This document shows positions 304 to 53,644 of a DNA stretch of 64,000 bases, piece after piece. The position numbers and the translations under genes were made by a program. Within the stretch, counting starts at the first letter, position 1. Every line of letters starts with the position of its first letter. A model generated the notes under the pieces. The model worked only from the letters and a program-made list of their open reading frames with translations. It made no database searches and was not told the DNA's origin. This DNA comes from Escherichia coli (GTDB lineage Bacteria; Pseudomonadota; Gammaproteobacteria; Enterobacterales; Enterobacteriaceae): the NCBI RefSeq assembly GCF_024223415.1, contig NZ_CP100500.1; one strand, 5' to 3'.

Positions 304-523
304 AATACCTTTTGATGTTCTTATTCATTCTGAAAACGCATTAATCCGTGCAAAGGAAATGGACGCATTACTACTTAAGTTAATTGATGTGCCGGAAAGT
401 GGCGATGAATCTGATTCAATAATGTTTTCTGCCGTGCGTACGCTATTAACGCATGTTATTAATGAATTAAATACAGTGATGGCAATTCACGAGAATAATA
501 AAGCGCAGCACACCGGAGAATAA
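296..523 (+). CDS. hypothetical small protein (about 75 aa)
   Basis: ORF in track; internal ATG at 296 (MHKIPF...) with GGGAGAAAG RBS, overlaps stop of upstream ORF; no recognisable family. Confidence 0.35.
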   Translation: MHKIPFDVLIHSENALIRAKEMDALLLKLIDVPESGDESDSIMFSAVRTLLTHVINELNTVMAIHENNKAQHTGE

Positions 524-528
524 AAACC

Positions 529-828
529 ATGAAAAATAAAAATTCTGGCGTTAATGCCAGCGGCCCCGCTCGGCCTGAATTTATGAACGGCGATATTTAC
601 CGCGACCAGTACGGCGGCACGGTAACGATTAAAGGCGTGGAGGAACGGCGCATCACTTACCGCCGTGAAGGCTACGAATATGATTGCGTGATGCCTGTTT
701 ATCAGTTCCGGCGTGATTTTTCTCTGGTACAGGCAGCGCCCCGCAGTAAACCAACCAGCAGGGAGAAAGCACGCGCCAATATTCAGGAAATAAAAAAGAT
801 GCTTAACGTATTCAGGGGTAAAAAATGA
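529..828 (+). CDS. hypothetical protein (99 aa)
   Basis: ORF in track, stop overlaps start of primase gene (operon-like coupling); no recognisable family. Confidence 0.4.
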   Translation: MKNKNSGVNASGPARPEFMNGDIYRDQYGGTVTIKGVEERRITYRREGYEYDCVMPVYQFRRDFSLVQAAPRSKPTSREKARANIQEIKKMLNVFRGKK

Positions 829-2573
829 AACTGGCACCGAACGTAAAAAAACAGCCGCGTGGAATAAAACACAAAGACACAGAGGTGATTATCTTTGCGG
901 GTAGTGATGCCTGGGCGCACGCGAAACAGTGGCAGGAACAGGACGGCCCCGCATCCGGCGATGATGTGCCGCCTGTGTGGCTCGGGCCAAATCAGCTTGC
1001 TGAACTGGATGCACTGAAAATTGTACCGGAGGGAAAAAAACGCGTAAGGCTGTACAGGGCCGGAGAACTGGATTTGGTGGAGACCAAAAAGATTGGTCAG
1101 AAGCTGGCGGCGGCAGATATTCAGGATGCGAATTTTTACTCTGAAGGAATGCACGGCCAGAAGGTGCAGAACTGGCGGCGCTATCTGAGTGCTGAGCGTG
1201 AAAATATTGCCGCAGGGCTTACCATGCCGGAACAGAAAAAAGCACAACTTTCACAGATGGCAGACAGTGAACGGGCACAGCTTCTTTCTTCCCGCTTTGA
1301 TGGTGTCTGCGTCCATGCAGAAAGTGAAATCGTTCACGTATGGCGCGGCGGGGTATGGTGTCCGGTCAGCACAATGGAACTTAGCCGCGAAATGGTGGCG
1401 ATCTATTCAGAGCACAGGGCCACTTTCAGCAAGCGCGTAATCAATAACGCCGTGGAAGCGTTAAAAGTTATTGCCGAACCAATGGGCGAGCCGTCCGGCG
1501 ATTTGCTGCCGTTCGCCAATGGTGCGCTTGACCTGAAAACGGGGGAATTTTCCCCGCACACGCCGGAGAACTGGATCACCACGCACAACGGCATTGAGTA
1601 CACGCCACCAGCACCAGGGGAGAATATCTGCGACAACGCGCCAAACTTTCATAAATGGCTTGAGCACGCAGCCGGAAAAGACCCGCGCAAGATGATGCGT
1701 ATATGTGCCGCGCTGTACATGATTATGGCGAACCGGTACGACTGGCAGATGTTTATTGAGGCCACCGGAGACGGCGGGAGCGGCAAAAGTACATTCACAC
1801 ACATAGCCAGCCTTCTGGCAGGGAAACAGAACACGGTAAGCGCTGAGATGACATCGCTTGATGATGCTGGTGGGCGTGCGCAGGTTGTCGGGAGTCGGCT
1901 TATTGTCCTGGCAGACCAGCCGAAATATACAGGCGAAGGAACGGGCATCAAGAAAATCACGGGCGGAGACCCCGTGGAAATAAACCCGAAATATGAGAAG
2001 CGTTTTACGGCGGTAATCAGGGCGGTGGTGCTGGCTACCAACAATAACCCGATGATATTCACCGAACGGGCCGGAGGTGTGTCACGTCGTCGCGTAATTT
2101 TCCGTTTCGACAATATCGTCAGTGAGGCTGAAAAAGACAGGGAGCTACCGGAAAAGATTGCGGCTGAAATCCCTGTCATTATCCGCCGCTTGCTGGCGAA
2201 CTTTGCCGACCCTGAAAAGGCACGGGCTTTACTCATTGAACAGCGAGACGGTGATGAAGCTCTGGCAATAAAGCAACAGACGGATCCGGTTATTGAGTTT
2301 TGCCAGTTTCTGAATTTTCTGGAGGAAGCGCGCGGCCTGATGATGGGCGGCGGCGGTGACTCTTCCAGGTACACGACCAGAAACAGCCTTTACCGCGTCT
2401 ATCTGGCGTTTATGGCGTATGCAGGCAGGAGCAAACCGCTAAACGTAAATGACTTTGGCAAGGCTATGAAGCCAGCGGCGAAAGTTTACGGACATGAATA
2501 TATAACGCGCAGGATTAAAGGGTTTACGCAAACCAACGTGACAACAACAGACGACTGCGACGCGTTTTTATAA
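825..2573 (+). CDS. phage/plasmid primase-helicase, P4/D5 family C-terminal domain with P-loop NTPase
   Basis: 582 aa ORF; Walker A motif GDGGSGKST followed by hydrophobic strand plus acidic Walker B-like LIVLADQ; architecture typical of satellite/PICI pri-rep proteins; iteron cluster immediately downstream. Confidence 0.75.
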   Translation: MKLAPNVKKQPRGIKHKDTEVIIFAGSDAWAHAKQWQEQDGPASGDDVPPVWLGPNQLAELDALKIVPEGKKRVRLYRAGELDLVETKKIGQKLAAADIQDANFYSEGMHGQKVQNWRRYLSAERENIAAGLTMPEQKKAQLSQMADSERAQLLSSRFDGVCVHAESEIVHVWRGGVWCPVSTMELSREMVAIYSEHRATFSKRVINNAVEALKVIAEPMGEPSGDLLPFANGALDLKTGEFSPHTPENWITTHNGIEYTPPAPGENICDNAPNFHKWLEHAAGKDPRKMMRICAALYMIMANRYDWQMFIEATGDGGSGKSTFTHIASLLAGKQNTVSAEMTSLDDAGGRAQVVGSRLIVLADQPKYTGEGTGIKKITGGDPVEINPKYEKRFTAVIRAVVLATNNNPMIFTERAGGVSRRRVIFRFDNIVSEAEKDRELPEKIAAEIPVIIRRLLANFADPEKARALLIEQRDGDEALAIKQQTDPVIEFCQFLNFLEEARGLMMGGGGDSSRYTTRNSLYRVYLAFMAYAGRSKPLNVNDFGKAMKPAAKVYGHEYITRRIKGFTQTNVTTTDDCDAFL

Positions 2574-2860
2574 TTTTTTGTAATTGCTGTCTACCCTGTC
2601 TACCTGAGTAAAGAAAAATACATTTAATTCAGTGCATTAAGTTAGGTAGATAGCCTTTTTTTACTGTCTACCCACTATCTACCCTCTCTACCTGATTTTA
2701 CCAGAATCAGACAGGGAGGTAGACACGGGGTAGATAGTGGATAAAAGCACTCTACCCCGCTGAAAGCCGCGCCATTACTGGCATGAGGGCCACTAAGGTA
2801 GGTAAGGTAGACAAGGGGAGGCACAACTCAAAACTTTTTAAACGAGGGGGTAAAAATAAA
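2574..2860. repeat. iteron cluster, putative replication origin (GTCTACC / GGTAGAC repeats)
   Basis: At least ten copies of 7-mer GTCTACC / GGTAGAC (and variants CTCTACC, GGTAGAT) in both orientations within about 290 bp, directly 3' of the primase gene. Confidence 0.6.
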
Positions 2861-2861
2861 A

Positions 2862-3119
2862 ATGCACACATCAGAAAAATTTAACAATCAGAAGAAATCA
2901 CATAACCGCGCCATTGACCTTACAGAGCACTGGCTGAGGGTGGCGATAAAAATCATCGACCGCAACGCGGGAGAAGGATACGCGAAAGCACATCCCGAAC
3001 TGATAAGCGCATTCATGACCACAGCGGCGGCAAACTTTGCCACGTTGACAGAACGGGAGATTGCCGAAGCGGAACAGGTGACAACCATCAATGTTAAAAC
3101 CGGAGAGCAGACAGCATGA
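2862..3119 (+). CDS. hypothetical protein (85 aa)
   Basis: ORF in track with GGGGG RBS upstream; stop overlaps next gene start. Confidence 0.4.
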   Translation: MHTSEKFNNQKKSHNRAIDLTEHWLRVAIKIIDRNAGEGYAKAHPELISAFMTTAAANFATLTEREIAEAEQVTTINVKTGEQTA

Positions 3120-3526
3120 CAGCACAGATAGCGGCTTACGGGCGGCTGGTGGACGACCCGCAGACAAAACAGACCAGCAAGGGAACACCGATGACGCTGG
3201 CACGTATGGCGGTATCGCTGCCATGCAGCCAGGCACAGGATGGACAGGCGACGTTATGGCTATCGGTCATCGCATTTGGTAAGCAGGCCGACTTCCTGGC
3301 TAAACATCAAAAAGGCGACGTTGCCAGCGTATCCGGCACGATGCAGGTCAGCCAGTGGACCGGACAGAACGGGGAAACGCGGCAGGGTTATCAGGTTATT
3401 GCAGACAGCGTAATCAGTGCCCGTGCGGCACGTCCTGGCGGGAACAGACGCAAAACCACAGGCACACAGGGTAATCAGCCACCAGCGGGAGGCGATGACC
3501 CTTACGGTGATGATATTCCGTTCTGA
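3116..3526 (+). CDS. single-stranded DNA-binding protein (SSB-like, OB fold with acidic DDIPF tail)
   Basis: 136 aa; N-terminal OB-fold-like region, Gly/Pro/Gln-rich linker and C-terminal ...DDPYGDDIPF characteristic of SSB tails. Confidence 0.6.
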   Translation: MTAQIAAYGRLVDDPQTKQTSKGTPMTLARMAVSLPCSQAQDGQATLWLSVIAFGKQADFLAKHQKGDVASVSGTMQVSQWTGQNGETRQGYQVIADSVISARAARPGGNRRKTTGTQGNQPPAGGDDPYGDDIPF

Positions 3527-3536
3527 GGGGGTGACG

Positions 3537-3809
3537 ATGGTACATGACCGGATAGCGGAGGAACTGGAGGCGAAAGGATTTTACCGGAGGGCGGCCGCGC
3601 GATGGGGTGAAGTTATGAGGCTGGTGAGCACTGACAAGGAGCGCGAACAGGTGGCAATGCGACGGCTGGAATGTTCACAGAAGGCACAGAGGCCACCGGA
3701 GCCGCCGGATGATTTAGGCGCTCTGAAAAGGTCAGTTAATCGCACTGAAAAACAAATGGGGATAGCTGGTATTGGCAAAGCAATATGGCGCAACTACCCG
3801 CAGAAGTGA
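3537..3809 (+). CDS. PerC-family-like transcriptional regulator (about 90 aa)
   Basis: Internal ATG at 3537 with GAGGGGG RBS; sequence MVHDRIAEELEAKGFYRRAAARWGEVM resembles N-terminal signature I recall for PerC/Pch-like activators; assignment from memory only. Confidence 0.45.
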   Translation: MVHDRIAEELEAKGFYRRAAARWGEVMRLVSTDKEREQVAMRRLECSQKAQRPPEPPDDLGALKRSVNRTEKQMGIAGIGKAIWRNYPQK

Positions 3810-3816
3810 GCACACA

Positions 3817-3839
3817 GCCGGAGCAATCCGGCTTTTTTG
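3817..3839 (+). terminator. rho-independent terminator
   Basis: GCCGGAGCAATCCGGC hairpin followed by TTTTTT. Confidence 0.6.
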
Positions 3840-3844
3840 CACCC

Positions 3845-3890
3845 AAAAAAAGCCCGATAAGTACAGGAGGCATCTTATCGGGCTTTTGCA
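3845..3890. terminator. second hairpin, possibly bidirectional terminator
   Basis: A-run, AGCCCGATAAG ... CTTATCGGGCT inverted repeat, then T-rich. Confidence 0.45.
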
Positions 3891-3966
3891 TATGAGGTTT
3901 TTTTTGGTGCACTGACACACATGATCGGGATAATCATTTCATAATTTGCAACGTAACTCAATATTG

Positions 3967-3994
3967 TTGCGCAAAATGCAATCATGATTATAAT
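3967..3994 (+). promoter_or_regulatory. sigma70-like promoter (-35 TTGCGC, 16 bp spacer, -10 TATAAT) upstream of capsid module
   Basis: Consensus -10 TATAAT at 3989-3994 with -35-like TTGCGC at 3967-3972; followed by perfect 8+2+8 palindrome CTGGATGAACATCCAG at about 4001-4016. Confidence 0.45.
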
Positions 3995-4050
3995 CAGGAC
4001 TGGATGAACATCCAGTTATGATTTTTTAAGTCAAAGAGGAATTTCTGACT

Positions 4051-4257
4051 ATGGCAGAAGAGAAAAAAGGCGGGGTGACGGTCTACATAAGCCCCGACAT
4101 CGTGGAGGCGCTCAAGGAACGCCACCAGCAGAATGTAAAAGCAGGCATTGCGGCAGGACTTGATCCGCTGGCGATGGTTGAGCCGTCAACAGGCTGGCAG
4201 GTGCGTACCTATTTACGTGCGGCGCTGGGTATCAATCAGGTTCACGGAGGTGAATAA
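4051..4257 (+). CDS. hypothetical small protein (68 aa), first gene of capsid module
   Basis: ORF in track with AAGAGGAA RBS; stop overlaps start of major capsid gene. Confidence 0.45.
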   Translation: MAEEKKGGVTVYISPDIVEALKERHQQNVKAGIAAGLDPLAMVEPSTGWQVRTYLRAALGINQVHGGE

Positions 4258-5312
4258 TGACAGGCAAAGCAACGGCACTTACAACTAACCAGCTTTTCGC
4301 GTACCTGAATCGCGGGGATATTTCGGAATTAAAATTCAGTCCGCTGTTTACCACGCTGTTTTTCCCGAACGTGGCGACCTTCAACACCCAAAACATCATG
4401 CTGGACACCCTGGACATTGAAGAGGTTACGATGTCAGCGTTCTGTTCGCCTATGGTGGGTAGTCAGGTCCAGCGCGATAAAGGGTACGAAACCAGCACAA
4501 TCAAACCTGGCTACATGAAGCCAAAGCACGAAATCGATCCAACAAAGACCATCATGCGCATGGCTGGAGAAGATCCGGCACAGCTTAACGACCCAACCTA
4601 TCGCCGTATGCGCCTGATTACTGGCAACATGCGCCGCCAGGTAAACGCCATTAAAGCGCGTGTTGAATGGCTGGCGGTGAATGCGGTAACGACCGGAAAA
4701 AACATCATTGAGGGCGAAGGCATAGAACGCTATGAAATCGACTGGAAAATACCGGAAAACTGCATCATACAGCAGGCCAGTGGTAAAAAATGGTCCCAGC
4801 AGGATAAAGACATGCACGACCCAATCTATGACATCGAGCTTTATGCTGATCAGGCAGGTTGCCCCGCCAACGTCATGATTATGGGCGGTGAGGTATGGCG
4901 CACATTACGCAGCTTTAAAAAATTCCGTGAACTGTACGATCTTTCCCGTGGATCAGAATCCGCCGCCGAGCTGGCCTGTAAAAACCTGGGCGAAGTGGTG
5001 AGCTTTAAAGGCTATCTTGGTGATCTGGCCCTTATCGTCTATTCCGGCAAATACACTGACAGCGACGGCACCGAAAAATATTTCCTTGAGCCTGATTTGC
5101 TGGTCCTGGGTAACACCAATAATAAAGGGCTGGTGGCATATGGTGCGATTATGGATCAGGAAGCGGTAAGAACGGGCGCAACGCAAAACATGTACTACCC
5201 GAAAAACTGGATTGAGGACGGCGATCCGGCGATTGAGTACGTGCAGACGCACAGCGCACCGCAGCCGGTACCGGCAGATATTCGCAAATTTGTTACCGTC
5301 AAAATTGCTTAA
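4257..5312 (+). CDS. major capsid protein, lambda gpE family
   Basis: 351 aa; segments FSPLFTTLFFPN and PGYMKPKHEIDP match lambda gpE (FDPLFLRLFFRES, PGYVKPKHEVNP) as I recall it; similar length (341 aa) and conserved C-terminal block. Confidence 0.8.
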   Translation: MTGKATALTTNQLFAYLNRGDISELKFSPLFTTLFFPNVATFNTQNIMLDTLDIEEVTMSAFCSPMVGSQVQRDKGYETSTIKPGYMKPKHEIDPTKTIMRMAGEDPAQLNDPTYRRMRLITGNMRRQVNAIKARVEWLAVNAVTTGKNIIEGEGIERYEIDWKIPENCIIQQASGKKWSQQDKDMHDPIYDIELYADQAGCPANVMIMGGEVWRTLRSFKKFRELYDLSRGSESAAELACKNLGEVVSFKGYLGDLALIVYSGKYTDSDGTEKYFLEPDLLVLGNTNNKGLVAYGAIMDQEAVRTGATQNMYYPKNWIEDGDPAIEYVQTHSAPQPVPADIRKFVTVKIA

Positions 5313-5323
5313 CGGGGGATTCT

Positions 5324-5659
5324 ATGGACGCTCCATATATTGAGTTATTTGCAGGCAGCCAGCAGGTATCCACGACGCTGGTACATTTTGCCGCTGATGC
5401 TGGCGTTATTCAGGAATTTACCCCGCTGATGCTGGCAGACAATGGCGAGTTTAAGGCGTGGGATGGTCAGGAATCTGGCAAAGCTGTTTATCTGACTTCG
5501 CACCCCGTGGACACGTCAAAGCAGAAATCAGCACAGTGTTACAAAACGGGGATATTCAATATTGCCGCCGTTAACTGGCCTGACAGCGTCGACACCGATG
5601 CGAAAAAATGCGCCGCCTTTGCGGGTTCCGGCGTATCCGTTCAGCCGCTGGCCCGATAA
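5324..5659 (+). CDS. head decoration protein, lambda gpD family
   Basis: 111 aa; TPLMLADNGEFKAWDG and YKTGIFN...AAFAGSGVSV match lambda gpD (TPLMLDTSSRKLVAWDG, YKSGTF...TAFAGTAISIV); same size as gpD. Confidence 0.7.
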   Translation: MDAPYIELFAGSQQVSTTLVHFAADAGVIQEFTPLMLADNGEFKAWDGQESGKAVYLTSHPVDTSKQKSAQCYKTGIFNIAAVNWPDSVDTDAKKCAAFAGSGVSVQPLAR

Positions 5660-5671
5660 GCAGGGGGAACG

Positions 5672-6085
5672 ATGGCAACGAATGAAAGTATCATGACGCT
5701 ACCGCTGGCGAGTAAATTTAAAGCCGAAGCGCGGGCAATGGCTGACAGAGGTTTATCAACCTACGAGGCCATACACCGACTAAACAAACTGGAAGAACAG
5801 GACAAGCCGCGCGCTGATGCGATTATGGCGCTTCATGAATCTGACGACTACCAGCCGCTGTTACGTGCAATGGCTAACGTGCCTTGTATCGATGTTGGTA
5901 CGGCTAAAAGCATCCTTAGCATGACCATAGAGCAGGAACGCCCGAAGGTTGCACCAGAGCTTACTTCAGCCTTTGAAAACTTTATGGACATGCACAGCCC
6001 GAAAGCCGTATCAGCTGGCATGGCATACGATGGCAGAACCCCGTGCGATGACGGCGACATCGACCGCATACTGAAAACCATCTGA
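5672..6085 (+). CDS. hypothetical protein (137 aa) of capsid/packaging module
   Basis: ORF in track with GGGGGA RBS; no family recognised. Confidence 0.45.
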   Translation: MATNESIMTLPLASKFKAEARAMADRGLSTYEAIHRLNKLEEQDKPRADAIMALHESDDYQPLLRAMANVPCIDVGTAKSILSMTIEQERPKVAPELTSAFENFMDMHSPKAVSAGMAYDGRTPCDDGDIDRILKTI

Positions 6086-6091
6086 GACAAG

Positions 6092-6115
6092 GCCGGAGAA
6101 ATCCGGCTTTTTTTG
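6092..6115 (+). terminator. rho-independent terminator
   Basis: GCCGGAGAAATCCGGC hairpin followed by TTTTTTT; same terminator module as at 3817. Confidence 0.6.
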
Positions 6116-6200
6116 CGGGTCCTTTCCGGCATGTGGACCCGTTACGGGGCGTCGACCTCGCACGTTTTCGCTATTTATGACGTTTTTCCGTGAAGGTGAC
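6110..6200 (+). other. lambda-type cos site 1 (cosQ-like, cosN GGGCGTCGACCT at 6147-6158, downstream segment)
   Basis: GGGTCCTTTCCGG...GTTACGGGGCGTCGACCTCGCACGTTTTCGCTATTTATGA closely matches the lambda cos region as I recall it (ACGGGTCCTTTCCGG...GTTACGGGGCGGCGACCTCGCGGGTTTTCGCTATTTATGAAAATTTTCCGG). Confidence 0.7.
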
Positions 6201-6247
6201 ACCACCACCACTTGATTAATATTTAACCATGTAGTTAAGGTAACATT

Positions 6248-6682
6248 ATGATTGATAAAGCTTGTTTTGTAAGTCAGCAGGAAATAGCTGAACATTTCAA
6301 TGTTAACAGAACCACTATTCGCGCATGGACCAAACAGGGGATGCCGTATCTTAATGCGGATCGCGGAAAGTCTGGCGGTTATCACATCGGGCATACATTG
6401 TTTTGGTATTCAGGTAAAAGCCATCTTCAGACCATCGGATATCACGTAGAAACCAGTGCGCTGGAAAAAATTATGTTTGCCAGGCTGCTTTCATCTGAGC
6501 GTGACGAGTACTCCAGTGAAGAAACAGAACATCGATTTGATGAAGGTTTGCAGATTTACGGCTATTCACCGGAAGATGTGAGCAAGGCACGAAATAAAAT
6601 GGCTGGCTTTCTGGCTGGGTGGCGTCATGCCGTAAGCGTTCGCCGTGCCAGCATGGAGCAATCAGCCGATACAGAACAGTAA
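6248..6682 (+). CDS. terminase small subunit, lambda Nu1-like (N-terminal winged HTH)
   Basis: 144 aa; QQEIAEHFNVNRTTIRAWTKQGMPYL...HTLFWYSGK aligns with lambda Nu1 KKQLADIFGASIRTIQNWQEQGMPVL...AVIKWYAER; about 90 bp downstream of cosN-like site as in lambda. Confidence 0.7.
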   Translation: MIDKACFVSQQEIAEHFNVNRTTIRAWTKQGMPYLNADRGKSGGYHIGHTLFWYSGKSHLQTIGYHVETSALEKIMFARLLSSERDEYSSEETEHRFDEGLQIYGYSPEDVSKARNKMAGFLAGWRHAVSVRRASMEQSADTEQ

Positions 6683-6729
6683 AGCCGATAACTTGTTAAT
6701 CACGCGCAGCAATGCGTGTGATTTTTGCA

Positions 6730-6850
6730 CACTTCCGGTTAACGGGTACGATGTCCGGTTTGTTTGTACATTTTTTGCACATGTCCGGTTCGCAGAAAGC
6801 ATGTTTTTATATTTTTCAGATAGTTAACTTGCAGAGAAACCGGACATGGA
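6730..6850. repeat. repeated TGTCCGGTT motifs (putative cosB-like terminase small-subunit binding sites)
   Basis: CACTTCCGGTT (6732), GATGTCCGGTT (6759), CATGTCCGGTT (6790) direct, and AACCGGACATG (6839) inverted. Confidence 0.5.
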
Positions 6851-6935
6851 TCCCGAAAAATTTTCATAAATAGTGAAAACGCGCGGGTTCGACGCCCCGT
6901 AACGGGCCATAATTCCAGAAGGACCCGACGACACC
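6830..6935 (-). other. lambda-type cos site 2, inverted relative to cos site 1
   Basis: Reverse complement reads GGGTCCTTCTGG...CCCGTTACGGGGCGTCGAACCCGCGCGTTTTCACTATTTATGAAAATTTTTCGGG, paralogous to site at 6110-6200 and to lambda cos. Confidence 0.65.
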
Positions 6936-6960
6936 AGACTATCAGAGCGATGGGGGCACA

Positions 6961-7242
6961 ATGACAGAAGCCGAACTACTGGGATTAATCCGCCGCGTTA
7001 CCGGAATCAGCCAGCAGCATGACGAACAGGCCACGCAGCCGGACAGCGTGACCGCCGAAAATTATGTGCGTGTTGTTGCGGAGGTGATGCGCCGTGACGG
7101 TATTGAGCTTAACGGCGTGGATATGCGCGACATACGGATCCGCGTTCTGGAAATGCTGGCATACCGTCGCCGCGTGCAGACGTACAGGGAAAAAGCAAAA
7201 ATAACGTACCACTGGAAGAAGCCGGAACGACTGCGTACGTAA
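6961..7242 (+). CDS. hypothetical protein (93 aa)
   Basis: ORF in track; weak RBS; last ORF of element before repeat-rich end. Confidence 0.3.
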   Translation: MTEAELLGLIRRVTGISQQHDEQATQPDSVTAENYVRVVAEVMRRDGIELNGVDMRDIRIRVLEMLAYRRRVQTYREKAKITYHWKKPERLRT

Positions 7243-7366
7243 TACGTACGGACATCGAGATAACGCAAAATTGCGCTGGCTACATCCCTCACATCTGAGG
7301 ACTGATAACAAGCTGCCTGAAAGACAGTCACAAACTACGAAATTTTCGCAGTTTAATTAATGGTCA

Positions 7367-7670
7367 GCTTAATCGCTAACCCGCTGATATTTTCGGAAAC
7401 ATCAATTTGAGGAAGTCGGCGCGGTAACTCGCTGAACTTAAAGCAAAGCGCAAAATTGCGCTGATTACTGGTTGGAATTGTTCCAGAGTGCAAATTTGCA
7501 CTCTGGCCTAACCCGTTGATTATTTCGAAAACCTGCAATGCAGGAAATCGGGGAAGTAAGCCTAAGCTATTGATTGTTTCGAAAACCACCATTGGGGGAT
7601 GTCGGGAAAGTAAGACTAACCCATTGATTCTTCCACAATCCTCAATGTGAGGAGGCCGGACATCGTGACA
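7367..7670. repeat. four imperfect direct repeats of about 54 bp (CTAACCCNTTGAT...GTAAG), three in tandem
   Basis: Units at about 7373-7427, 7507-7560, 7562-7615, 7616-7670 share CTAACCC(G/A)(C/T)TGAT ... TCGG..AAGTAAG and each contains a short internal inverted repeat. Confidence 0.6.
7483..7506. promoter_or_regulatory. 24-bp perfect palindrome CCAGAGTGCAAATTTGCACTCTGG
   Basis: Perfect dyad symmetry seen directly; nearby related inverted repeats GCGCAA-AA-TTGCGC at 7448-7461 and CGCAA-AA-TTGCG at 7264-7275. Confidence 0.5.
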
Positions 7671-9689: not shown

Positions 9690-10517
9690 ATGAAACCAAT
9701 GCAGCTAAGAATTACCAGTCGAAAAAAACTCACCTCTCTATTATGCGCTCTTGGGCTAATTTCCATCGTTGCAATTTATCCGCGTCAGACGGTGAATTTT
9801 TTCTATTCGACAGCAGTTCAGATTACAGACTACATCCACTTCTACGGTTATCGCCCGGTTAAATCTTTCGCTATTCGCATTCCTGCCAGTTACACCATTC
9901 ACGGAATAGATGTTTCGCGCTGGCAGGAGCGGATCGACTGGCAGCGGGTGGCAAAAATGCGCGACAACGGTATCCGCTTACAGTTTGCTTTTATTAAGGC
10001 GACGGAAGGCGAAAAGCTGGTGGACCCCTATTTTTCGCGTAACTGGCAACTAAGCCGCGAAAATGGCCTGCTGCGTGGGGCGTATCATTATTTCTCCCCG
10101 TCGGTATCCGCTTCAGTTCAGGCGAGATTATTTCTGCAAACGGTGGATTTCTCACAAGGCGATTTCCCTGCCGTGCTGGACGTAGAAGAACGGGGAAAAT
10201 TATCGGCAAAAGAATTACGCAAGCGGGTAAGTCAGTGGCTAAAAATGGTCGAAAAAAGTACGGGGAAAAAGCCGATTATTTACTCAGGAGCCGTTTTTTA
10301 TCACACCAATCTGGCGGGCTATTTCAATGAATATCCGTGGTGGGTGGCTCACTACTATCAACGTCGTCCGGACAATGACGGAATGGCCTGGCGCTTCTGG
10401 CAGCATTCCGACCGTGGACAGGTAGATGGCATCAATGGTCCGGTGGATTTTAATGTATTTAATGGCACGGTGGAGGAGTTGCAGGCATTCGTTGATGGGA
10501 TTAAAGAAACGCCTTAA
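9690..10517 (+). CDS. yegX: glycoside hydrolase family 25 (lysozyme-like) protein
   Basis: 275 aa; N-terminal hydrophobic segment; GH25-like region (IHGIDVSRWQ...); conserved position next to thiD. Confidence 0.8.
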   Translation: MKPMQLRITSRKKLTSLLCALGLISIVAIYPRQTVNFFYSTAVQITDYIHFYGYRPVKSFAIRIPASYTIHGIDVSRWQERIDWQRVAKMRDNGIRLQFAFIKATEGEKLVDPYFSRNWQLSRENGLLRGAYHYFSPSVSASVQARLFLQTVDFSQGDFPAVLDVEERGKLSAKELRKRVSQWLKMVEKSTGKKPIIYSGAVFYHTNLAGYFNEYPWWVAHYYQRRPDNDGMAWRFWQHSDRGQVDGINGPVDFNVFNGTVEELQAFVDGIKETP

Positions 10518-10568
10518 ATAAGAAGCAGTGATATACTCCCACCAGACTCCCCGGCAGGAAAAAGACAA

Positions 10569-11315
10569 ATGGAACAAGCGCATACCCAGCTGATTGCCCA
10601 ACTGAACGAGCGTATTTTAGCGGCGGATAACACGCCGCTTTATATTAAGTTTGCCGAAACGGTAAAAAATGCCGTGCGCAGCGGGGTGCTGGAGCATGGC
10701 AATATTTTGCCCGGTGAGCGTGATTTAAGTCAGTTAACCGGCGTTTCGCGCATTACGGTGCGCAAGGCGATGCAGGCGCTGGAAGAAGAGGGTGTGGTGA
10801 CGCGTTCGCGCGGTTACGGCACGCAGATCAACAACATCTTCGAATACTCGTTGAAAGAAGCGCGAGGTTTTTCTCAGCAGGTGGTATTGCGCGGGAAAAA
10901 GCCCGATACGCTATGGGTTAACAAGCGTGTCGTGAAATGTCCCGAAGAAGTCGCGCAGCAGCTGGCGGTCGAAGCAGGAAGTGATGTCTTTTTGCTTAAG
11001 CGTATTCGCTATGTCGATGAAGAAGCGGTATCGATTGAGGAATCGTGGGTTCCGGCGCATTTAATTCATGATGTTGATGCCATCGGGATTTCACTTTATG
11101 ACTATTTCCGCAGCCAGCACATTTACCCACAACGTACGCGTTCCCGCGTTAGCGCCCGGATGCCAGATGCCGAGTTTCAGTCACATATTCAGTTAGATAG
11201 CAAAATACCGGTGCTGGTGATCAAGCAAGTGGCGCTTGACCAACAGCAACGGCCTATTGAATACAGCATTAGCCACTGTCGCAGCGATCTATACGTTTTT
11301 GTGTGCGAGGAGTAG
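10569..11315 (+). CDS. yegW: GntR-family transcriptional regulator
   Basis: 248 aa; N-terminal GntR-type HTH, UTRA-like C-terminus. Confidence 0.85.
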   Translation: MEQAHTQLIAQLNERILAADNTPLYIKFAETVKNAVRSGVLEHGNILPGERDLSQLTGVSRITVRKAMQALEEEGVVTRSRGYGTQINNIFEYSLKEARGFSQQVVLRGKKPDTLWVNKRVVKCPEEVAQQLAVEAGSDVFLLKRIRYVDEEAVSIEESWVPAHLIHDVDAIGISLYDYFRSQHIYPQRTRSRVSARMPDAEFQSHIQLDSKIPVLVIKQVALDQQQRPIEYSISHCRSDLYVFVCEE

Positions 11316-12254
11316 TTCCTCGCGCGTTGGCGCACAATCACCGCCCCGATGCCCGACAACCCACGACGCCACTGCATTGCCCAGTAATACGGCATCCGCC
11401 AGTGGCAGACCAGAGGCCAGCCCGGCAAGTACGCCACCGGCATGACTGTCGCCCGCCCCAATGGTGTCGACAACTTGCGTTGGAAATGCCGGAATGCAGC
11501 CAGAAGCGTCGTTGCTGAAATACCATGCGCCTTCTTTATCGAGACGAACGATCAACGGCGCGGCAAATTTCTCCTGCCATTGTTTGCCAAGTGTTGTTAT
11601 CTCTGCGGATAAAGCAAAACGTTCGGCGGCAATCTCAGCCTCTTGACGATTGAGCGACACTAAAGGTCGACAGGCCATGATCCGCGCCAGTAATGCATCC
11701 GGGATATCGCCAATACGTGGGCCAAAATCGATAAACGGCGTCACGTCTTGCAGCTTTTCCAGCCATTCCACTAATAATTCGCCGCAGGGCGAGGCCAGTT
11801 GATAACCGGAAAAATAGAGCAGGCTGCCAGGCGCAACGGTTAATCGCGCCAGACACTGGCGATTCCACTGATTTTCCACACCGCTGAATGACATAAAAGT
11901 GCGTTCGCCATCCGGCTCAACCAGCGCCAGACACCAGCCGTTATCACCTTCGGCGTTATCGATCAGGCTGATTAAGCCCTCTTTTGCCATCCGGTTGCGA
12001 ATAATCTCCGCCCACACGCCCTGACCGAGCGGCAAGGCATTACCCGCTTCGATGCCGAGGCGCTTTAACGCCACGGCAATATTCAGTGCGCAGCCGCCAA
12101 CGTTAACGCTCTGCTGTTTCAGTTCGATATCGCACCCACGCCAGGGGAGGGCATAAGCGTCGGCGATCACGTCAATGACCGCCGCGCCGACGACCATCAC
12201 CGACTGACGCGTGGTTAATTCAGGCAGCAGCGTGTGTAATCGAGCGCCGCTCAT
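11289..12254 (-). CDS. yegV: PfkB-family sugar/nucleoside kinase
   Basis: 321 aa; PfkB motifs (GGCALN, DTIGAGD); conserved synteny. Confidence 0.85.
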   Translation of the reverse strand: MSGARLHTLLPELTTRQSVMVVGAAVIDVIADAYALPWRGCDIELKQQSVNVGGCALNIAVALKRLGIEAGNALPLGQGVWAEIIRNRMAKEGLISLIDNAEGDNGWCLALVEPDGERTFMSFSGVENQWNRQCLARLTVAPGSLLYFSGYQLASPCGELLVEWLEKLQDVTPFIDFGPRIGDIPDALLARIMACRPLVSLNRQEAEIAAERFALSAEITTLGKQWQEKFAAPLIVRLDKEGAWYFSNDASGCIPAFPTQVVDTIGAGDSHAGGVLAGLASGLPLADAVLLGNAVASWVVGHRGGDCAPTREELLLAHKNV

Positions 12255-15841: not shown

Positions 15842-15990
15842 GCCTTATACGGACAACACCACCCCGTAGGACGGATAAGGCGTTTACGCTGCATCCGGCA
15901 ACCTATGCCTGATGCGACGCTGAAGCGTCTTATCATGCCTACATAGCACTGCCACGTATGTTTACACCGCATCCGGCATAAAAACACGCG
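15842..15990. repeat. REP/BIME cluster
   Basis: Multiple GCCGGATGCGGCG / CGCATCCGGC-type palindromic units. Confidence 0.7.
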
Positions 15991-24095: not shown

Positions 24096-24425
24096 GAATA
24101 TTTTTTGGTAAGCGTCAAATATGCGCTTTCTGGCTGTGCGTAGCCGGAACCTGTGGGAGCACGATGCCGATAAGTGAAAGGCATCGTGCTATGAAGGAGG
24201 ATTCTATCGATGTGGTCAATGGAAGACGGTTACCAGAGATAGGGCTTATGCATAAAAAAATAAGCCCGTGTAAGGGAGATTACACAGGCTAAGGAGGTGG
24301 TTCCTGGTACAGCTAGCATTTTATGGGTTATGTTTTTCAGCGAAACGGATGATAACCTTAATAAATGCAGCTGTATGTGATCGGTTTCTAAGAATTTTCC
24401 ATCCGGGAAAAATAATCGAAATTAA

Positions 24426-37669: not shown

Positions 37670-37810
37670 AACGGGAAAGCCCCTCCCGAGGAAGGGGCCT
37701 TAAATAAGGAAAGGGTCATGATGAAGCTACTCATCATCGTGGTGCTCTTAGTGATTAGCTACCCAGCATACTAAGACTACCAGGGCGGGGGAAACCCCGC
37801 TCTACCCTCA
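37670..37810 (-). ncRNA. Sib-family antisense sRNA (antitoxin), copy 1, approximate bounds
   Basis: On minus strand: -35 TTGACA (rc of 37839-37844) and -10-like CATACT downstream of ibs stop; hairpin GCCCCTCCCGAGGAAGGGGC at 37679-37699 as terminator; bounds inferred. Confidence 0.45.
37718..37774 (+). CDS. Ibs-family type I toxin peptide (MMKLLIIVVLLVISYPAY)
   Basis: 18-codon hydrophobic ORF with AAGG RBS, below six-frame track length cutoff; resembles IbsA-E peptides. Confidence 0.7.
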   Translation: MMKLLIIVVLLVISYPAY

Positions 37811-37997
37811 CTCCTGAAAGTATGCCTTCACGATAAGATTGTCAATCCGCAGGATTTGCCGTCTGCGATCCTGCCAGCAAAAATTCTTTGCGAGACGTTA
37901 CGCAATAATCACACTGGAAACTATTTTATCTGCAAGTCAGCGATAGACTAAGTGCATGGCGAAAGGAGGTAAGCCGACGATTTCAGCGGGACGCTGA

Positions 37998-38138
37998 AAC
38001 GGGAAAGCCCCTCCCGAGGAAGGGGCCTTAAATAAGGAAAGGGTCATGATGAAGCTACTCATCATCGTGGTGCTCTTAGTCATAAGCTTCCCCGCTTACT
38101 AAGACTACCAGGGCGGGGGAAACCCCGCTCTACCCTCA
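37998..38138 (-). ncRNA. Sib-family antisense sRNA, copy 2, approximate bounds
   Basis: Same promoter and hairpin elements as copy 1 within repeat 2. Confidence 0.45.
38046..38102 (+). CDS. Ibs-family type I toxin peptide (MMKLLIIVVLLVISFPAY)
   Basis: Second repeat copy, 18-codon hydrophobic ORF. Confidence 0.7.
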   Translation: MMKLLIIVVLLVISFPAY

Positions 38139-38327
38139 CTCCTGAAAGTATGCCTTCACGATAAGATTGTCAATCCGCAGGCTTTGTAGTCTGCGATCCT
38201 GCCAGCAAATATTCTTTGCGAGTCGTTACGCAATAATCACAGAGGAAACTATTTTATTCACGCGTTAGCGATAGCCTGCATTCAGGGCGAAAGGAGGTAA
38301 GCCGATGATTTCAGCGGGACGCTGAAA

Positions 38328-38470
38328 CGGGAAAGCCTCTCCCGGAGAAGAGGGCTTTTAATAAGGAAAGGGTTATGATGAAGCACGTCATCATACTGGT
38401 GATACTCTTAGTGATTAGCTTCCAGGCTTACTAAGAACACCAGGGGGAGGGGGAAACCTCTCCCTAACCC
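38328..38470 (-). ncRNA. Sib-family antisense sRNA, copy 3, approximate bounds
   Basis: Divergent copy; hairpin AGCCTCTCCCGGAGAAGAGGGCTTT at about 38335-38358. Confidence 0.4.
38375..38434 (+). CDS. Ibs-family type I toxin peptide (MMKHVIILVILLVISFQAY)
   Basis: Third, more divergent repeat copy, 19-codon hydrophobic ORF. Confidence 0.7.
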   Translation: MMKHVIILVILLVISFQAY

Positions 38471-38654
38471 TCACTCCTGAAATTATGTCACTCCGCCCTT
38501 AGTGTCAATCGACGGCTCTCCGTTCTTGCGAGGCGAATAGCAAAATTTTCTGCGCCGCCGGGCCTAATTCTGAAAGTTTCTTCGTTTGCTCTTATTTCAT
38601 TATTGCAGTCGGTATGATACCGGACCTCAATAATTCTCTAAGAAAGGATTTCTT

Positions 38655-53164: not shown

Positions 53165-53632
53165 AGTAAGTACAAAACCTATTCGTTGTATGACAAATGT
53201 CACAATTCGATCATGGATAAATCGGGGCAAAAATGCAATGTTGCAGCACTATTTATCTCATATTATTTGAGGGTAATAACCTCACATTATCCCTGAATTA
53301 AAAGTGGTAATAATAAAACATTATTTAAGAAATATCGCATGTGGAGGCGCAATATTAAATATTGTCAACCTAAAGAAACTCCTAAAAACCATATTGAATG
53401 ACACTTAATATAATTCTTAAAAATAGCCAATTGCCGAATTGTTACCTTGCCTGCTATTCCGTTAGCTGTAACACTTCCTCCTGCATTATTGGAGAGCCAA
53501 TATTCAATTACCATAATGTCACCTTATATTCGGAAGTTAATTTCCGCAATAACCCTTTCTCATCAACGATTGTATGCAGAGAGGGTTTGAAAAATTAAGC
53601 TAAATCAGTGTATTGGTAGCTAAAAAGCCAGG

Positions 53633-53644
53633 GGCGGTAGCGTG
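53633..53644 (+). promoter_or_regulatory. ops element (GGCGGTAGCGTG) / JUMPstart, RfaH recruitment site in cps leader
   Basis: Exact ops consensus in long AT-rich leader about 180 bp upstream of wza. Confidence 0.75.

Follow-up and report, generated by a model that had tools for sequence, protein, structure and literature searches.

In the pathogenicity islands of Staphylococcus aureus (SaPIs), and in phage-inducible chromosomal islands (PICIs) as a group, replication starts at 6-12 iterons placed directly 3' of the rep gene around an AT-rich region (PMC6092414 and the SaPI literature). The SaPI definition calls for short iterons, no fewer than two to either side of that AT-rich region and in opposite directions, and the SaPI Rep proteins bind them through a C-terminal winged helix and load themselves. 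For the PICIs of Gram-negative bacteria the origin has been placed in the region directly 3' of the initiator gene, and the iterons of EcCICFT073 are drawn in Fig. 2a of Fillol-Salom et al. 2018, ISME J (PMC6092414). In the same work a cloned EcCICFT073 pri-ori segment sustained a thermosensitive plasmid when cells were kept at the restrictive temperature, no colonies were obtained with the delta-rep plasmid, and overexpression of AlpA led to pri-dependent runaway replication of the island (PMC6092414). Here we analyze a 64,000-nucleotide stretch of Escherichia coli DNA (contig NZ_CP100500.1, referred to below as the window) and, within it, the 288-bp spacer at 2574-2861 that separates the stop codon of a 582-aa open reading frame (ORF; 825-2573, + strand), which we term pri-rep, from the ATG of an 85-aa ORF (2862-3119, + strand). 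We put at about 0.9 the probability that this spacer is the replication origin of an EcCICFT073-type PICI and that its 11 iterons, T(G/A)TCTACC, serve as binding sites for the winged helix of the Pri-Rep protein.

The most direct evidence is the near identity of the spacer to a sequence of established function. It is 97% identical to the spacer that follows the gene for a 'DNA primase family protein' in E. coli CFT073, where the island concerned is EcCICFT073, the prototype PICI of Gram-negative bacteria. The two origins have the same iterons with one difference: copy 10, degenerate in the window, is a perfect GGTAGA in CFT073. They also have the same flanking genes (DUF4222, pri-rep, orf85, ssb, PerC-like, capsid-like and decoration), although the CFT073 island lies between roxA and phoQ and that of the window next to thiM. 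Because the near-identical CFT073 sequence has been tested, the interpretation of the spacer as an origin is correct and already in the literature: the window holds another copy of the published EcCICFT073-type PICI origin and nothing new in kind. The initial annotation had proposed a likely origin of SaPI/PICI-type architecture from the repeats and their position, and this is upheld by the CFT073 identity together with the superfamily 3 (SF3) helicase encoded upstream, the conserved repeat cores and the protein residues that track the type of repeat, as described below; it had overlooked the earlier publication of this origin type (PMC6092414). What the present analysis adds is a close link to phage P4, a two-residue specificity switch, doubt about the primase domain and, above all, a conserved block that is not an iteron. 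The elements of the origin are as follows.

2588-2604, + strand: iterons 1 and 2, TGTCTACC at 2588-2595 and again at 2597-2604, 9 bp from start to start.
2605-2644, no strand: AT-rich stretch of ~23% G+C between iterons 2 and 3, presumed from the SaPI/PICI model to be the unwinding element.
2645-2652, - strand: iteron 3, TATCTACC; the C-type relatives defined below have two copies here.
2665-2692, + strand: iterons 4-6, TGTCTACC (2665-2672), TATCTACC (2676-2683) and TCTCTACC (2685-2692).
2718-2736, - strand: iterons 7 and 8, TGTCTACC (2718-2725) and TATCTACC (2729-2736), which converge on iterons 4-6.
2749-2756, + strand: iteron 9, ACTCTACC.
2760-2782, + strand: conserved non-iteron block CTGAAAGCCGCGCCATTACTGGC, equal to CTGAAA-GCCGCGCCATTACTGG-C, between iteron 9 and iterons 10-11.
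2797-2813, - strand: iteron 10 (degenerate, TACCTACC, 2797-2804) and iteron 11 (TGTCTACC, 2806-2813).

The stretch 2588-2813 thus carries ten exact TCTACC/GGTAGA cores and one degenerate copy in both orientations, with hexamers on the + strand starting at 2590, 2599, 2667, 2678, 2687 and 2751, those on the - strand lying at 2645, 2718, 2729 and 2806, and the degenerate eleventh copy (GGTAGG) at 2797-2802. The initial annotation had counted at least ten copies of a 7-bp motif and close variants in both orientations, in agreement with the five GTCTACC, three ATCTACC, two CTCTACC and one ACCTACC found here (six on the + strand, five on the -), and it had rightly placed them in a non-coding stretch directly after the primase/helicase stop, since the TAA of the 582-codon ORF is at 2571-2573 and the first iteron begins at 2588. 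The exact heptamer GTCTACC/GGTAGAC occurs five times in the whole window, always within 2589-2812, and the other 23 hexamer cores of the window never exceed one per 300 bp. At that background rate the Poisson probability of ten or more cores in 288 bp is 4e-17, and in 2000 shuffles of the 288-bp spacer no non-trivial 6-mer reached more than five copies, compared with the ten observed. When the 5' flank is included the repeat unit is 8 bp, T(G/A)TCTACC, with the starts of neighbouring units 9 or 11 bp apart. The array also has a periodicity of 88 bp (2587-2607 matches 2675-2695, and 2717-2730 matches 2805-2818) and an imperfect palindrome centred near 2706, with arms at 2669-2684 and 2728-2743. 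It is asymmetric around the AT-rich stretch, with two copies to the left and nine to the right, where the first copy is on the - strand and is followed by further + and - copies. The AT-rich spacers claimed at the outset proved true of 2605-2644, the sole strongly AT-rich spacer, whose counterpart is AT-rich in every origin type even though its sequence differs, and untrue of 2757-2796, which is G+C-rich (57-62%). No GATC is present in 2574-2861, and a DnaA-box-like TTATCCACT between iterons 8 and 9 (2736-2744, - strand), with eight of nine matches to TTATCCACA, is found in CFT073 and missing in the more diverged origin types; because it is not conserved in relatives it is probably non-functional or fortuitous.

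Set against the known systems, the origin agrees with the PICI/SaPI type in its position 3' of the initiator, in the number and arrangement of its iterons, and in having as initiator an SF3 helicase whose C-terminal domain is a winged helix. Specifically, SaPIbov1, SaPI1 and SaPI5 likewise have the origin directly 3' of the initiator gene with iterons in both orientations around an AT-rich region, and the helicase core encoded in the window matches the SaPI5 PriRep structure (7OLA). The differences are that SaPI iterons are 5-6 bp and those of the window 8 bp, that the array of the window is asymmetric, and that the E. coli island is transcribed unidirectionally and regulated by AlpA. The likeness to P4 is of a different sort. 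The P4 record lists 16 'type 1' repeats, 13 of them TGTTCACC, spaced 9-11 bp apart in both orientations and divided between ori and crr, of which crr lies directly 3' of the alpha gene. The window iteron TGTCTACC agrees with the P4 type-1 repeat at six of eight positions, the two central bases differing, and the window array occupies the position of crr with the same 9-11 bp spacing and both orientations. P4, however, needs two separate clusters (ori and crr) whereas the PICI has one, its alpha protein begins with a primase domain of ~320 aa in place of the unrelated 135-aa TOPRIM-like domain of Pri-Rep, and neither P4 ori nor crr contains a copy of the conserved block. With an iteron that is off at two of eight positions and a single cluster, the spacer does not fall among the P4 alpha-dependent origins. 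Nor does it belong with the P1/RepFIB-type oriV, in which DnaA boxes, Dam-methylated 7-mers and 17-22-bp iterons lie upstream of rep and the iterons also form its operator; the window has 8-bp iterons downstream of the gene, no GATC and an unconserved DnaA-box-like site.

The initiator gene and the domain relevant to iteron recognition are:

825-2573, + strand: pri-rep, initiator/helicase of 582 aa, with a TOPRIM-like domain (residues 1-135), D5_N (151-280), an SF3 P-loop domain (DUF5906, 314-415) and a winged-helix origin-binding domain (486-577).
2280-2555, + strand: C-terminal domain of Pri-Rep (codons 486-577), homologous to the origin-binding domain of P4 alpha (PDB 1KA8).

Pfam assigns D5_N and DUF5906 to these residues and Pox_D5 to 485-573. 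In a search of solved structures the helicase part matched 7OLA with E=8e-15 and residues 486-577 matched 1KA8 with E=1e-8. A direct comparison of Pri-Rep 139-577 with P4 alpha 324-762 gave 41% identity (E=3e-114), the binding domains being ~33% identical, and the kinship is thus much closer than the 'distant homology' noted in 2018 (PMC6092414). The C-terminal model has helices at 519-532 and 541-554 and a beta-hairpin at 557-574, which we read as the predicted helix-turn-helix and wing of a winged helix. The N-terminal 135 residues are TOPRIM-like by fold only. A profile comparison of this domain with the primase domain of P4 alpha found no similarity, it is also fused to RepA-type (AAA_25) helicases, and by manual inspection of the family alignment the acidic residues of active TOPRIM domains (the Glu after strand 1 and the DxD after strand 3) are not conserved, which places priming by Pri-Rep in doubt. 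The upstream gene had been labelled a primase/helicase in the initial annotation; the helicase half is confirmed by the SF3 core, while the primase half was given without evidence of activity. A so-called primase with no recognisable catalytic primase domain raises the question of who primes at this origin.

The link between the repeats and the protein comes from natural variation. The comparison comprises 86 related loci (7 from E. coli genomes, 78 of 80 IMG/VR loci, and the window) with 62 distinct origin sequences. The seven relatives from E. coli, with spacer identities to the window of 72-97%, have the TCTACC core in 9-11 copies at the same aligned positions and in the same orientations, and over the 86 loci the count is 6-11, mostly 9-11. 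The two bases 5' of the core define two flavours, T-type T[G/A]TCTACC (40 of 86 loci, including the window and CFT073) and C-type C[N]TCTACC (46 of 86). Across the 582 aligned residues of Pri-Rep only columns 542 and 545 (codons at 2448-2450 and 2457-2459) separate the flavours, with N542/G545 in T-type and A542/S545 in C-type loci, and these residues lie where the predicted recognition helix makes its first turn, ahead of the beta-hairpin wing, in a model whose core has a confidence score (pLDDT) of ~80. The overall similarity of Pri-Rep is independent of flavour, some C-type proteins being 95% identical to that of the window and some T-type proteins only 90%, which indicates that the module is a mosaic. 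The last 440 nt of pri-rep have nearly fixed flavour differences at only seven positions, five of them within 2447-2457, where codons 542 and 545 lie, and just two in the 114 nt that follow codon 545 up to the stop, whereas the origin itself has dozens; hence this is not simply a divergent block that begins in the gene. We rate the association as good evidence, though short of decisive, for the repeats being sites of the initiator. If so, the switch N542A/G545S with T(G/A)TCTACC to C(N)TCTACC constitutes a testable specificity code for the P4/PICI origin-binding winged helix, with relevance to incompatibility and cross-replication between co-resident satellites.

Several points weigh against this interpretation of the spacer and its repeats. 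Experimental origin function belongs to the 97%-identical CFT073 relative and not to the window copy itself, and there deletion of ori from EcCICFT073 significantly reduced colony numbers and did not abolish them (PMC6092414). The flavour code has a single exception in the 86 loci, L078, a natural mismatch in which a T-type origin accompanies an A/S protein, and the physical linkage of the C-terminal codons to the adjoining origin could account in part for the covariation at 542 and 545. The C-terminal model is of low overall confidence (mean pLDDT 60, core ~80) and was used solely for placing secondary structure.

Based on the SaPI model and on the homology to P4, we put forward the following as the most likely mechanism for initiation at this origin. 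Induction of AlpA by a helper phage would lead to synthesis of Pri-Rep, the winged-helix domains of which would bind the iterons without ATP. The bound protomers would then assemble into hexameric SF3 rings on either side of the AT-rich stretch 2605-2644 and melt it, and these helicases would load themselves without a separate loader and subsequently move apart, with the unwound strands coated by the single-strand-binding protein (SSB) that the island itself encodes two genes downstream. Priming would be carried out by Pri-Rep if its TOPRIM-like domain is active and otherwise by host DnaG.

The block at 2760-2782 may bear on this last step and is an unexpected feature of the origin. It is the best-conserved part of the spacer: across the 62 distinct origins its left half shows scattered single-base changes, while CATTACTG is invariant in all 62. 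An exact search for GCCGCGCCATTACTG in viral contigs gave at least 120 stretches. Among the matches listed are 15 PICI origins and also iteron arrays built from different repeats (GTTGGACAAC, CATGTGCGG, GGTTCATCG, GGTTCGACG, ATGCGCGG, ACTATAGTTAC and GCACCAAATNTGTACGG), in each of which the block is in or beside the array. About one third of the exact 15-mer viral matches listed are coincidences in unrelated coding sequence (RKKDRRAITALLRKF), and the match in pHCM2, a Walker-A motif, was set aside as unrelated. Many of the arrays are inside a gene for a lambda O-like or DnaD-like initiator followed by a gene for a DnaB-like helicase; in these the block, read on the opposite strand, encodes SNGAA. 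It is found in the putative origin annotated in gene 43 of Sf6, in the O genes of HK75, mEpX2, HK106, HK629, mEp234 and CUS-3, in Stx2a phages, in Chi-like Salmonella phages beside primase and helicase genes, in P1-like phage-plasmids and in small plasmids, including an exact 16-mer in a Moraxella plasmid with a RepB (Rep_3) initiator gene upstream. The loci with the block are numbered L089, L101, L105, L108, L115, L119, L128, L129, L209-L217 and L219-L240 in our set. One of them, an IMG/VR contig (L119), has beside its O-gene origin a DnaB-like helicase of 797 aa (ORF 9800-12193) that appears, from its sequence, to be interrupted by an intein-like insert.

The block also extends to a classical plasmid origin. 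In the core of the P1/P7 oriR the Dam-methylated 7-mers are separated from the RepA iterons by a 'G+C-rich stretch', GCAG-GCCGCGCCACGTCTGG-C, which is the same element as 2762-2782 of the window, with identical GCCGCGCCA and CTGGC and three variable bases between them. Everything around it differs, since RepA, its iterons, the DnaA boxes and the Dam-methylated 7-mers are all unlike the window, and the P1 copy of the block lies right against the unwinding repeats. Between P1 and its RepFIB-type relatives the homology stops at the block. Overall the consensus is GCCGCGCCA-N3-CTGG, usually after A-rich bases. A scan for the 18-mer AAGCCGCGCCATTACTGG in one genome per species gave 22 matches where we estimate ~9 by chance, and 10 of the 22 are within short-repeat arrays, compared with 7% of control tiles (binomial P=1e-6). 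The hosts include Aeromonas, Zoogloea, Massilia, a Hahellaceae genome, Brenneria, Sporomusa and Desulfotomaculum; the Zoogloea match adjoins a ParA-like gene and a protein that from its sequence looks like an initiator of the TrfA type. In Desulfotomaculum, in a contig of a metagenome-assembled genome (L227) and in Vreelandella the block is 40-100 nt 3' of a primase-helicase gene, and in six of the seven loci with a helicase or primase gene ahead of the block it is on the coding strand of that gene, as in the window. Taken together, it ranges over Gamma- and Betaproteobacteria and Firmicutes and adjoins unrelated iterons and initiators: P4-family and other helicase-primases, lambda O-like and DnaD-like organisers, RepA of P1/RepFIB, Rep_3 and TrfA. 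The conserved block is real and statistically solid. A literature search for its sequence returned nothing relevant, and no description of its conservation across families was found in the searchable literature, an incomplete library; the 'conserved region' (CR) of pHW126/pIGRK was considered as a possible earlier description and dropped, because the replicons concerned have a low G+C content and their description contains no matching sequence. It should be noted that CCGCGCCATT, which forms the centre of the block, occurs again in the 85-aa ORF 139 bp downstream (2906-2915, AACCGCGCCATTGAC), where it may be due to chance.

One account of the block, the main rival to a role in priming and a serious possibility that we nevertheless rate short of an even chance, is that it is a mere G+C-rich spacer or 'clamp' with no partner that recognises its sequence, serving to fix a distance and restrain melting in the way proposed for P1 oriR, its identity across replicons being due to common descent and the exchange of origin cores. 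That the G+C-rich stretch of P1 oriR is the same element speaks for this, as does the end of homology between P1 and P1-like phages of the RepFIB type at the block, which is what a module junction would give. Brendler et al. 1991 reportedly found the length of the P1 stretch to be more important than its sequence, which also fits a spacer. A pure spacer should drift, yet the exact 18-mer recurs in Gammaproteobacteria, Betaproteobacteria and Firmicutes beside unrelated iterons and initiators, CATTACTG never varies in the 62 distinct PICI origins, and in the PICI origin the block and the AT-rich stretch do not adjoin each other.

The leading specific hypothesis, which we advance tentatively and hold to be possible and still rather doubtful, is that the block is a start site for host primase. 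CTG is the start trinucleotide of DnaG, and in phage G4-type origins the primase starts at the T of CTG. Both the invariant CTG of the block and its primer-like length were noted before any primase site was inspected. In the complementary-strand origin of G4 the template at the primer start reads GAAAGCCGC-CGTCCC-TACTG-C, compared with GAAAGCCGC-GCCAT-TACTG-GC in the window, and judging from these two sequences we consider the match unlikely to be chance. In the proposed mechanism, GCCGCGCCATTACTGG (2766-2781) would be the site of the first RNA primer laid down by host DnaG, with the primer 5'-AGUAAUGGCG starting opposite T2779 of the CTG and running leftwards. Several observations count against a primase start. 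The block shares CTG and GAAAGCCGC...TACTG with the G4 start signal and has no equivalent of its stem-loops: G4 and alpha3 require three hairpins, with GCCGCC as the 3' arm of stem-loop I, whereas the block has no such hairpin. In alpha3 the AAA of the G4 motif, which there forms a variable hairpin loop, is replaced (TTA). The block does not keep a consistent orientation to the AT-richest flank across the families, being on the left in 16 cases, on the right in nine and undecided in eight. Finally, Brendler, Abeles and Austin 1991 reportedly found that the P1 stretch tolerates changes in sequence and not in length.

A third possibility is that the block is the site of an unknown host factor. 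In its general form our proposal, offered with the same reserve as its most specific version, the host-primase start signal, is that (R)AAGCCGCGCCA-N3-CTGG, a sequence of 16-22 bp, may be a core element, universal to the origins of bacterial mobile elements, that has escaped recognition. A primase start signal, if true, would account for the G+C-rich stretch of P1 oriR, which has long lacked an explanation, and would make the block the marker of the exact nucleotide of leading-strand start in many phage, plasmid and satellite origins. Whether as a primase start or as another sequence-specific site, it would account in one testable way for a feature hitherto regarded as mere spacer, and it would be a useful landmark for origin prediction in phage and plasmid sequences.

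Turning from the block to the array as a whole, the position 3' of an alpha-like gene is that of P4 crr and not of P4 ori, and both iteron and protein are P4-like, so that the array might be a cis-acting replication enhancer with the true start elsewhere, just as ori and crr are 4.5 kb apart in P4. We consider this improbable. No second cluster resembling P4 ori was found either in the part of the island inside the window, which has the single cluster only, or in the 18.6-kb CFT073 locus, which covers the whole island and has one TCTACC cluster (11 copies) and two isolated copies; furthermore, the cloned pri-ori segment alone sufficed for plasmid replication (PMC6092414). Less probable still is that the repeats are operators for a transcription factor (AlpA, a PerC-like protein or an autoregulating Pri-Rep) of the orf85-ssb-capsid genes with replication secondary, for although the array is just upstream of the next gene and iterons of plasmids such as P1 double as rep-promoter operators, a scan of 2300-3200 found neither a terminator nor, on the + strand, a sigma-70-like promoter, transcription in the island family runs in one direction from the alpA promoter (PMC6092414), and flavour covaries with Pri-Rep residues and not with the downstream genes, which differ widely among islands that share the origin.

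The sequences that follow the origin are:

2830-2861, + strand: conserved AAAACTTTTTAAACGAGGGGGT and an A-rich leader, holding the ribosome-binding site GAGGGGG (2844-2850) of the 85-aa ORF.
2862-3526, + strand: downstream genes of the replication module, namely the 85-aa ORF (phrog_1231, of unknown function) and ssb (3116-3526).

Because the segment 2830-2861 was the anchor used for retrieval, its near-invariance among the loci retrieved is in part built in. Since the spacer has no predicted promoter or terminator, the downstream genes are probably transcribed by read-through from upstream. Rfam searches of 2300-3200 gave just sub-threshold matches to miRNA-like hairpins, which are due to the convergent iterons, and a known RNA family was excluded.

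The spacer region is matched in hundreds of complete E. coli chromosomes, with no matches in plasmids. The window opens inside the island, which ends near 7463 adjoining thiM, and the integrase end is outside the window. The island stretch 498-7235 is 91.6% identical to CFT073, which makes it a different island copy. In CFT073 the homologue is an island of ~11 kb with an integrase and a helix-turn-helix (HTH) regulator upstream, and its genes encode the integrase, the HTH regulator, small ORFs, DUF4222, the primase-family protein, the 85-aa ORF, SSB, and PerC-like, capsid-like and decoration-like proteins. In four E. coli islands (L002, L004, L006 and L007) the pri-rep-ori-orf85 module is joined to downstream modules that, compared with one another and with window 3500-7400, are very different, with ssb following in all of them except L007. 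The kinds of downstream module comprise capsid-like plus decoration genes (window and CFT073), a ClpP-protease/capsid fusion, and a terminase small subunit plus capsid. One replication module with varied downstream modules indicates that the replication module is exchanged as a unit.

Two further observations concern the rest of the window. In the intergenic gap 6086-6247 of the island, GGGCGTCGACCT at 6147-6158 differs by one mismatch from the lambda cosN sequence GGGCGGCGACCT. EcCICFT073 is reported to have two cos sites, and by this resemblance the sequence is a candidate for one of them. In its chromosomal part, where no tRNA genes are present, the window carries three tandem SIB antitoxin RNAs (37703-38508), CyaR (24258-24343), a JUMPstart element (53606-53644) and naRNA4 (15869-15939).

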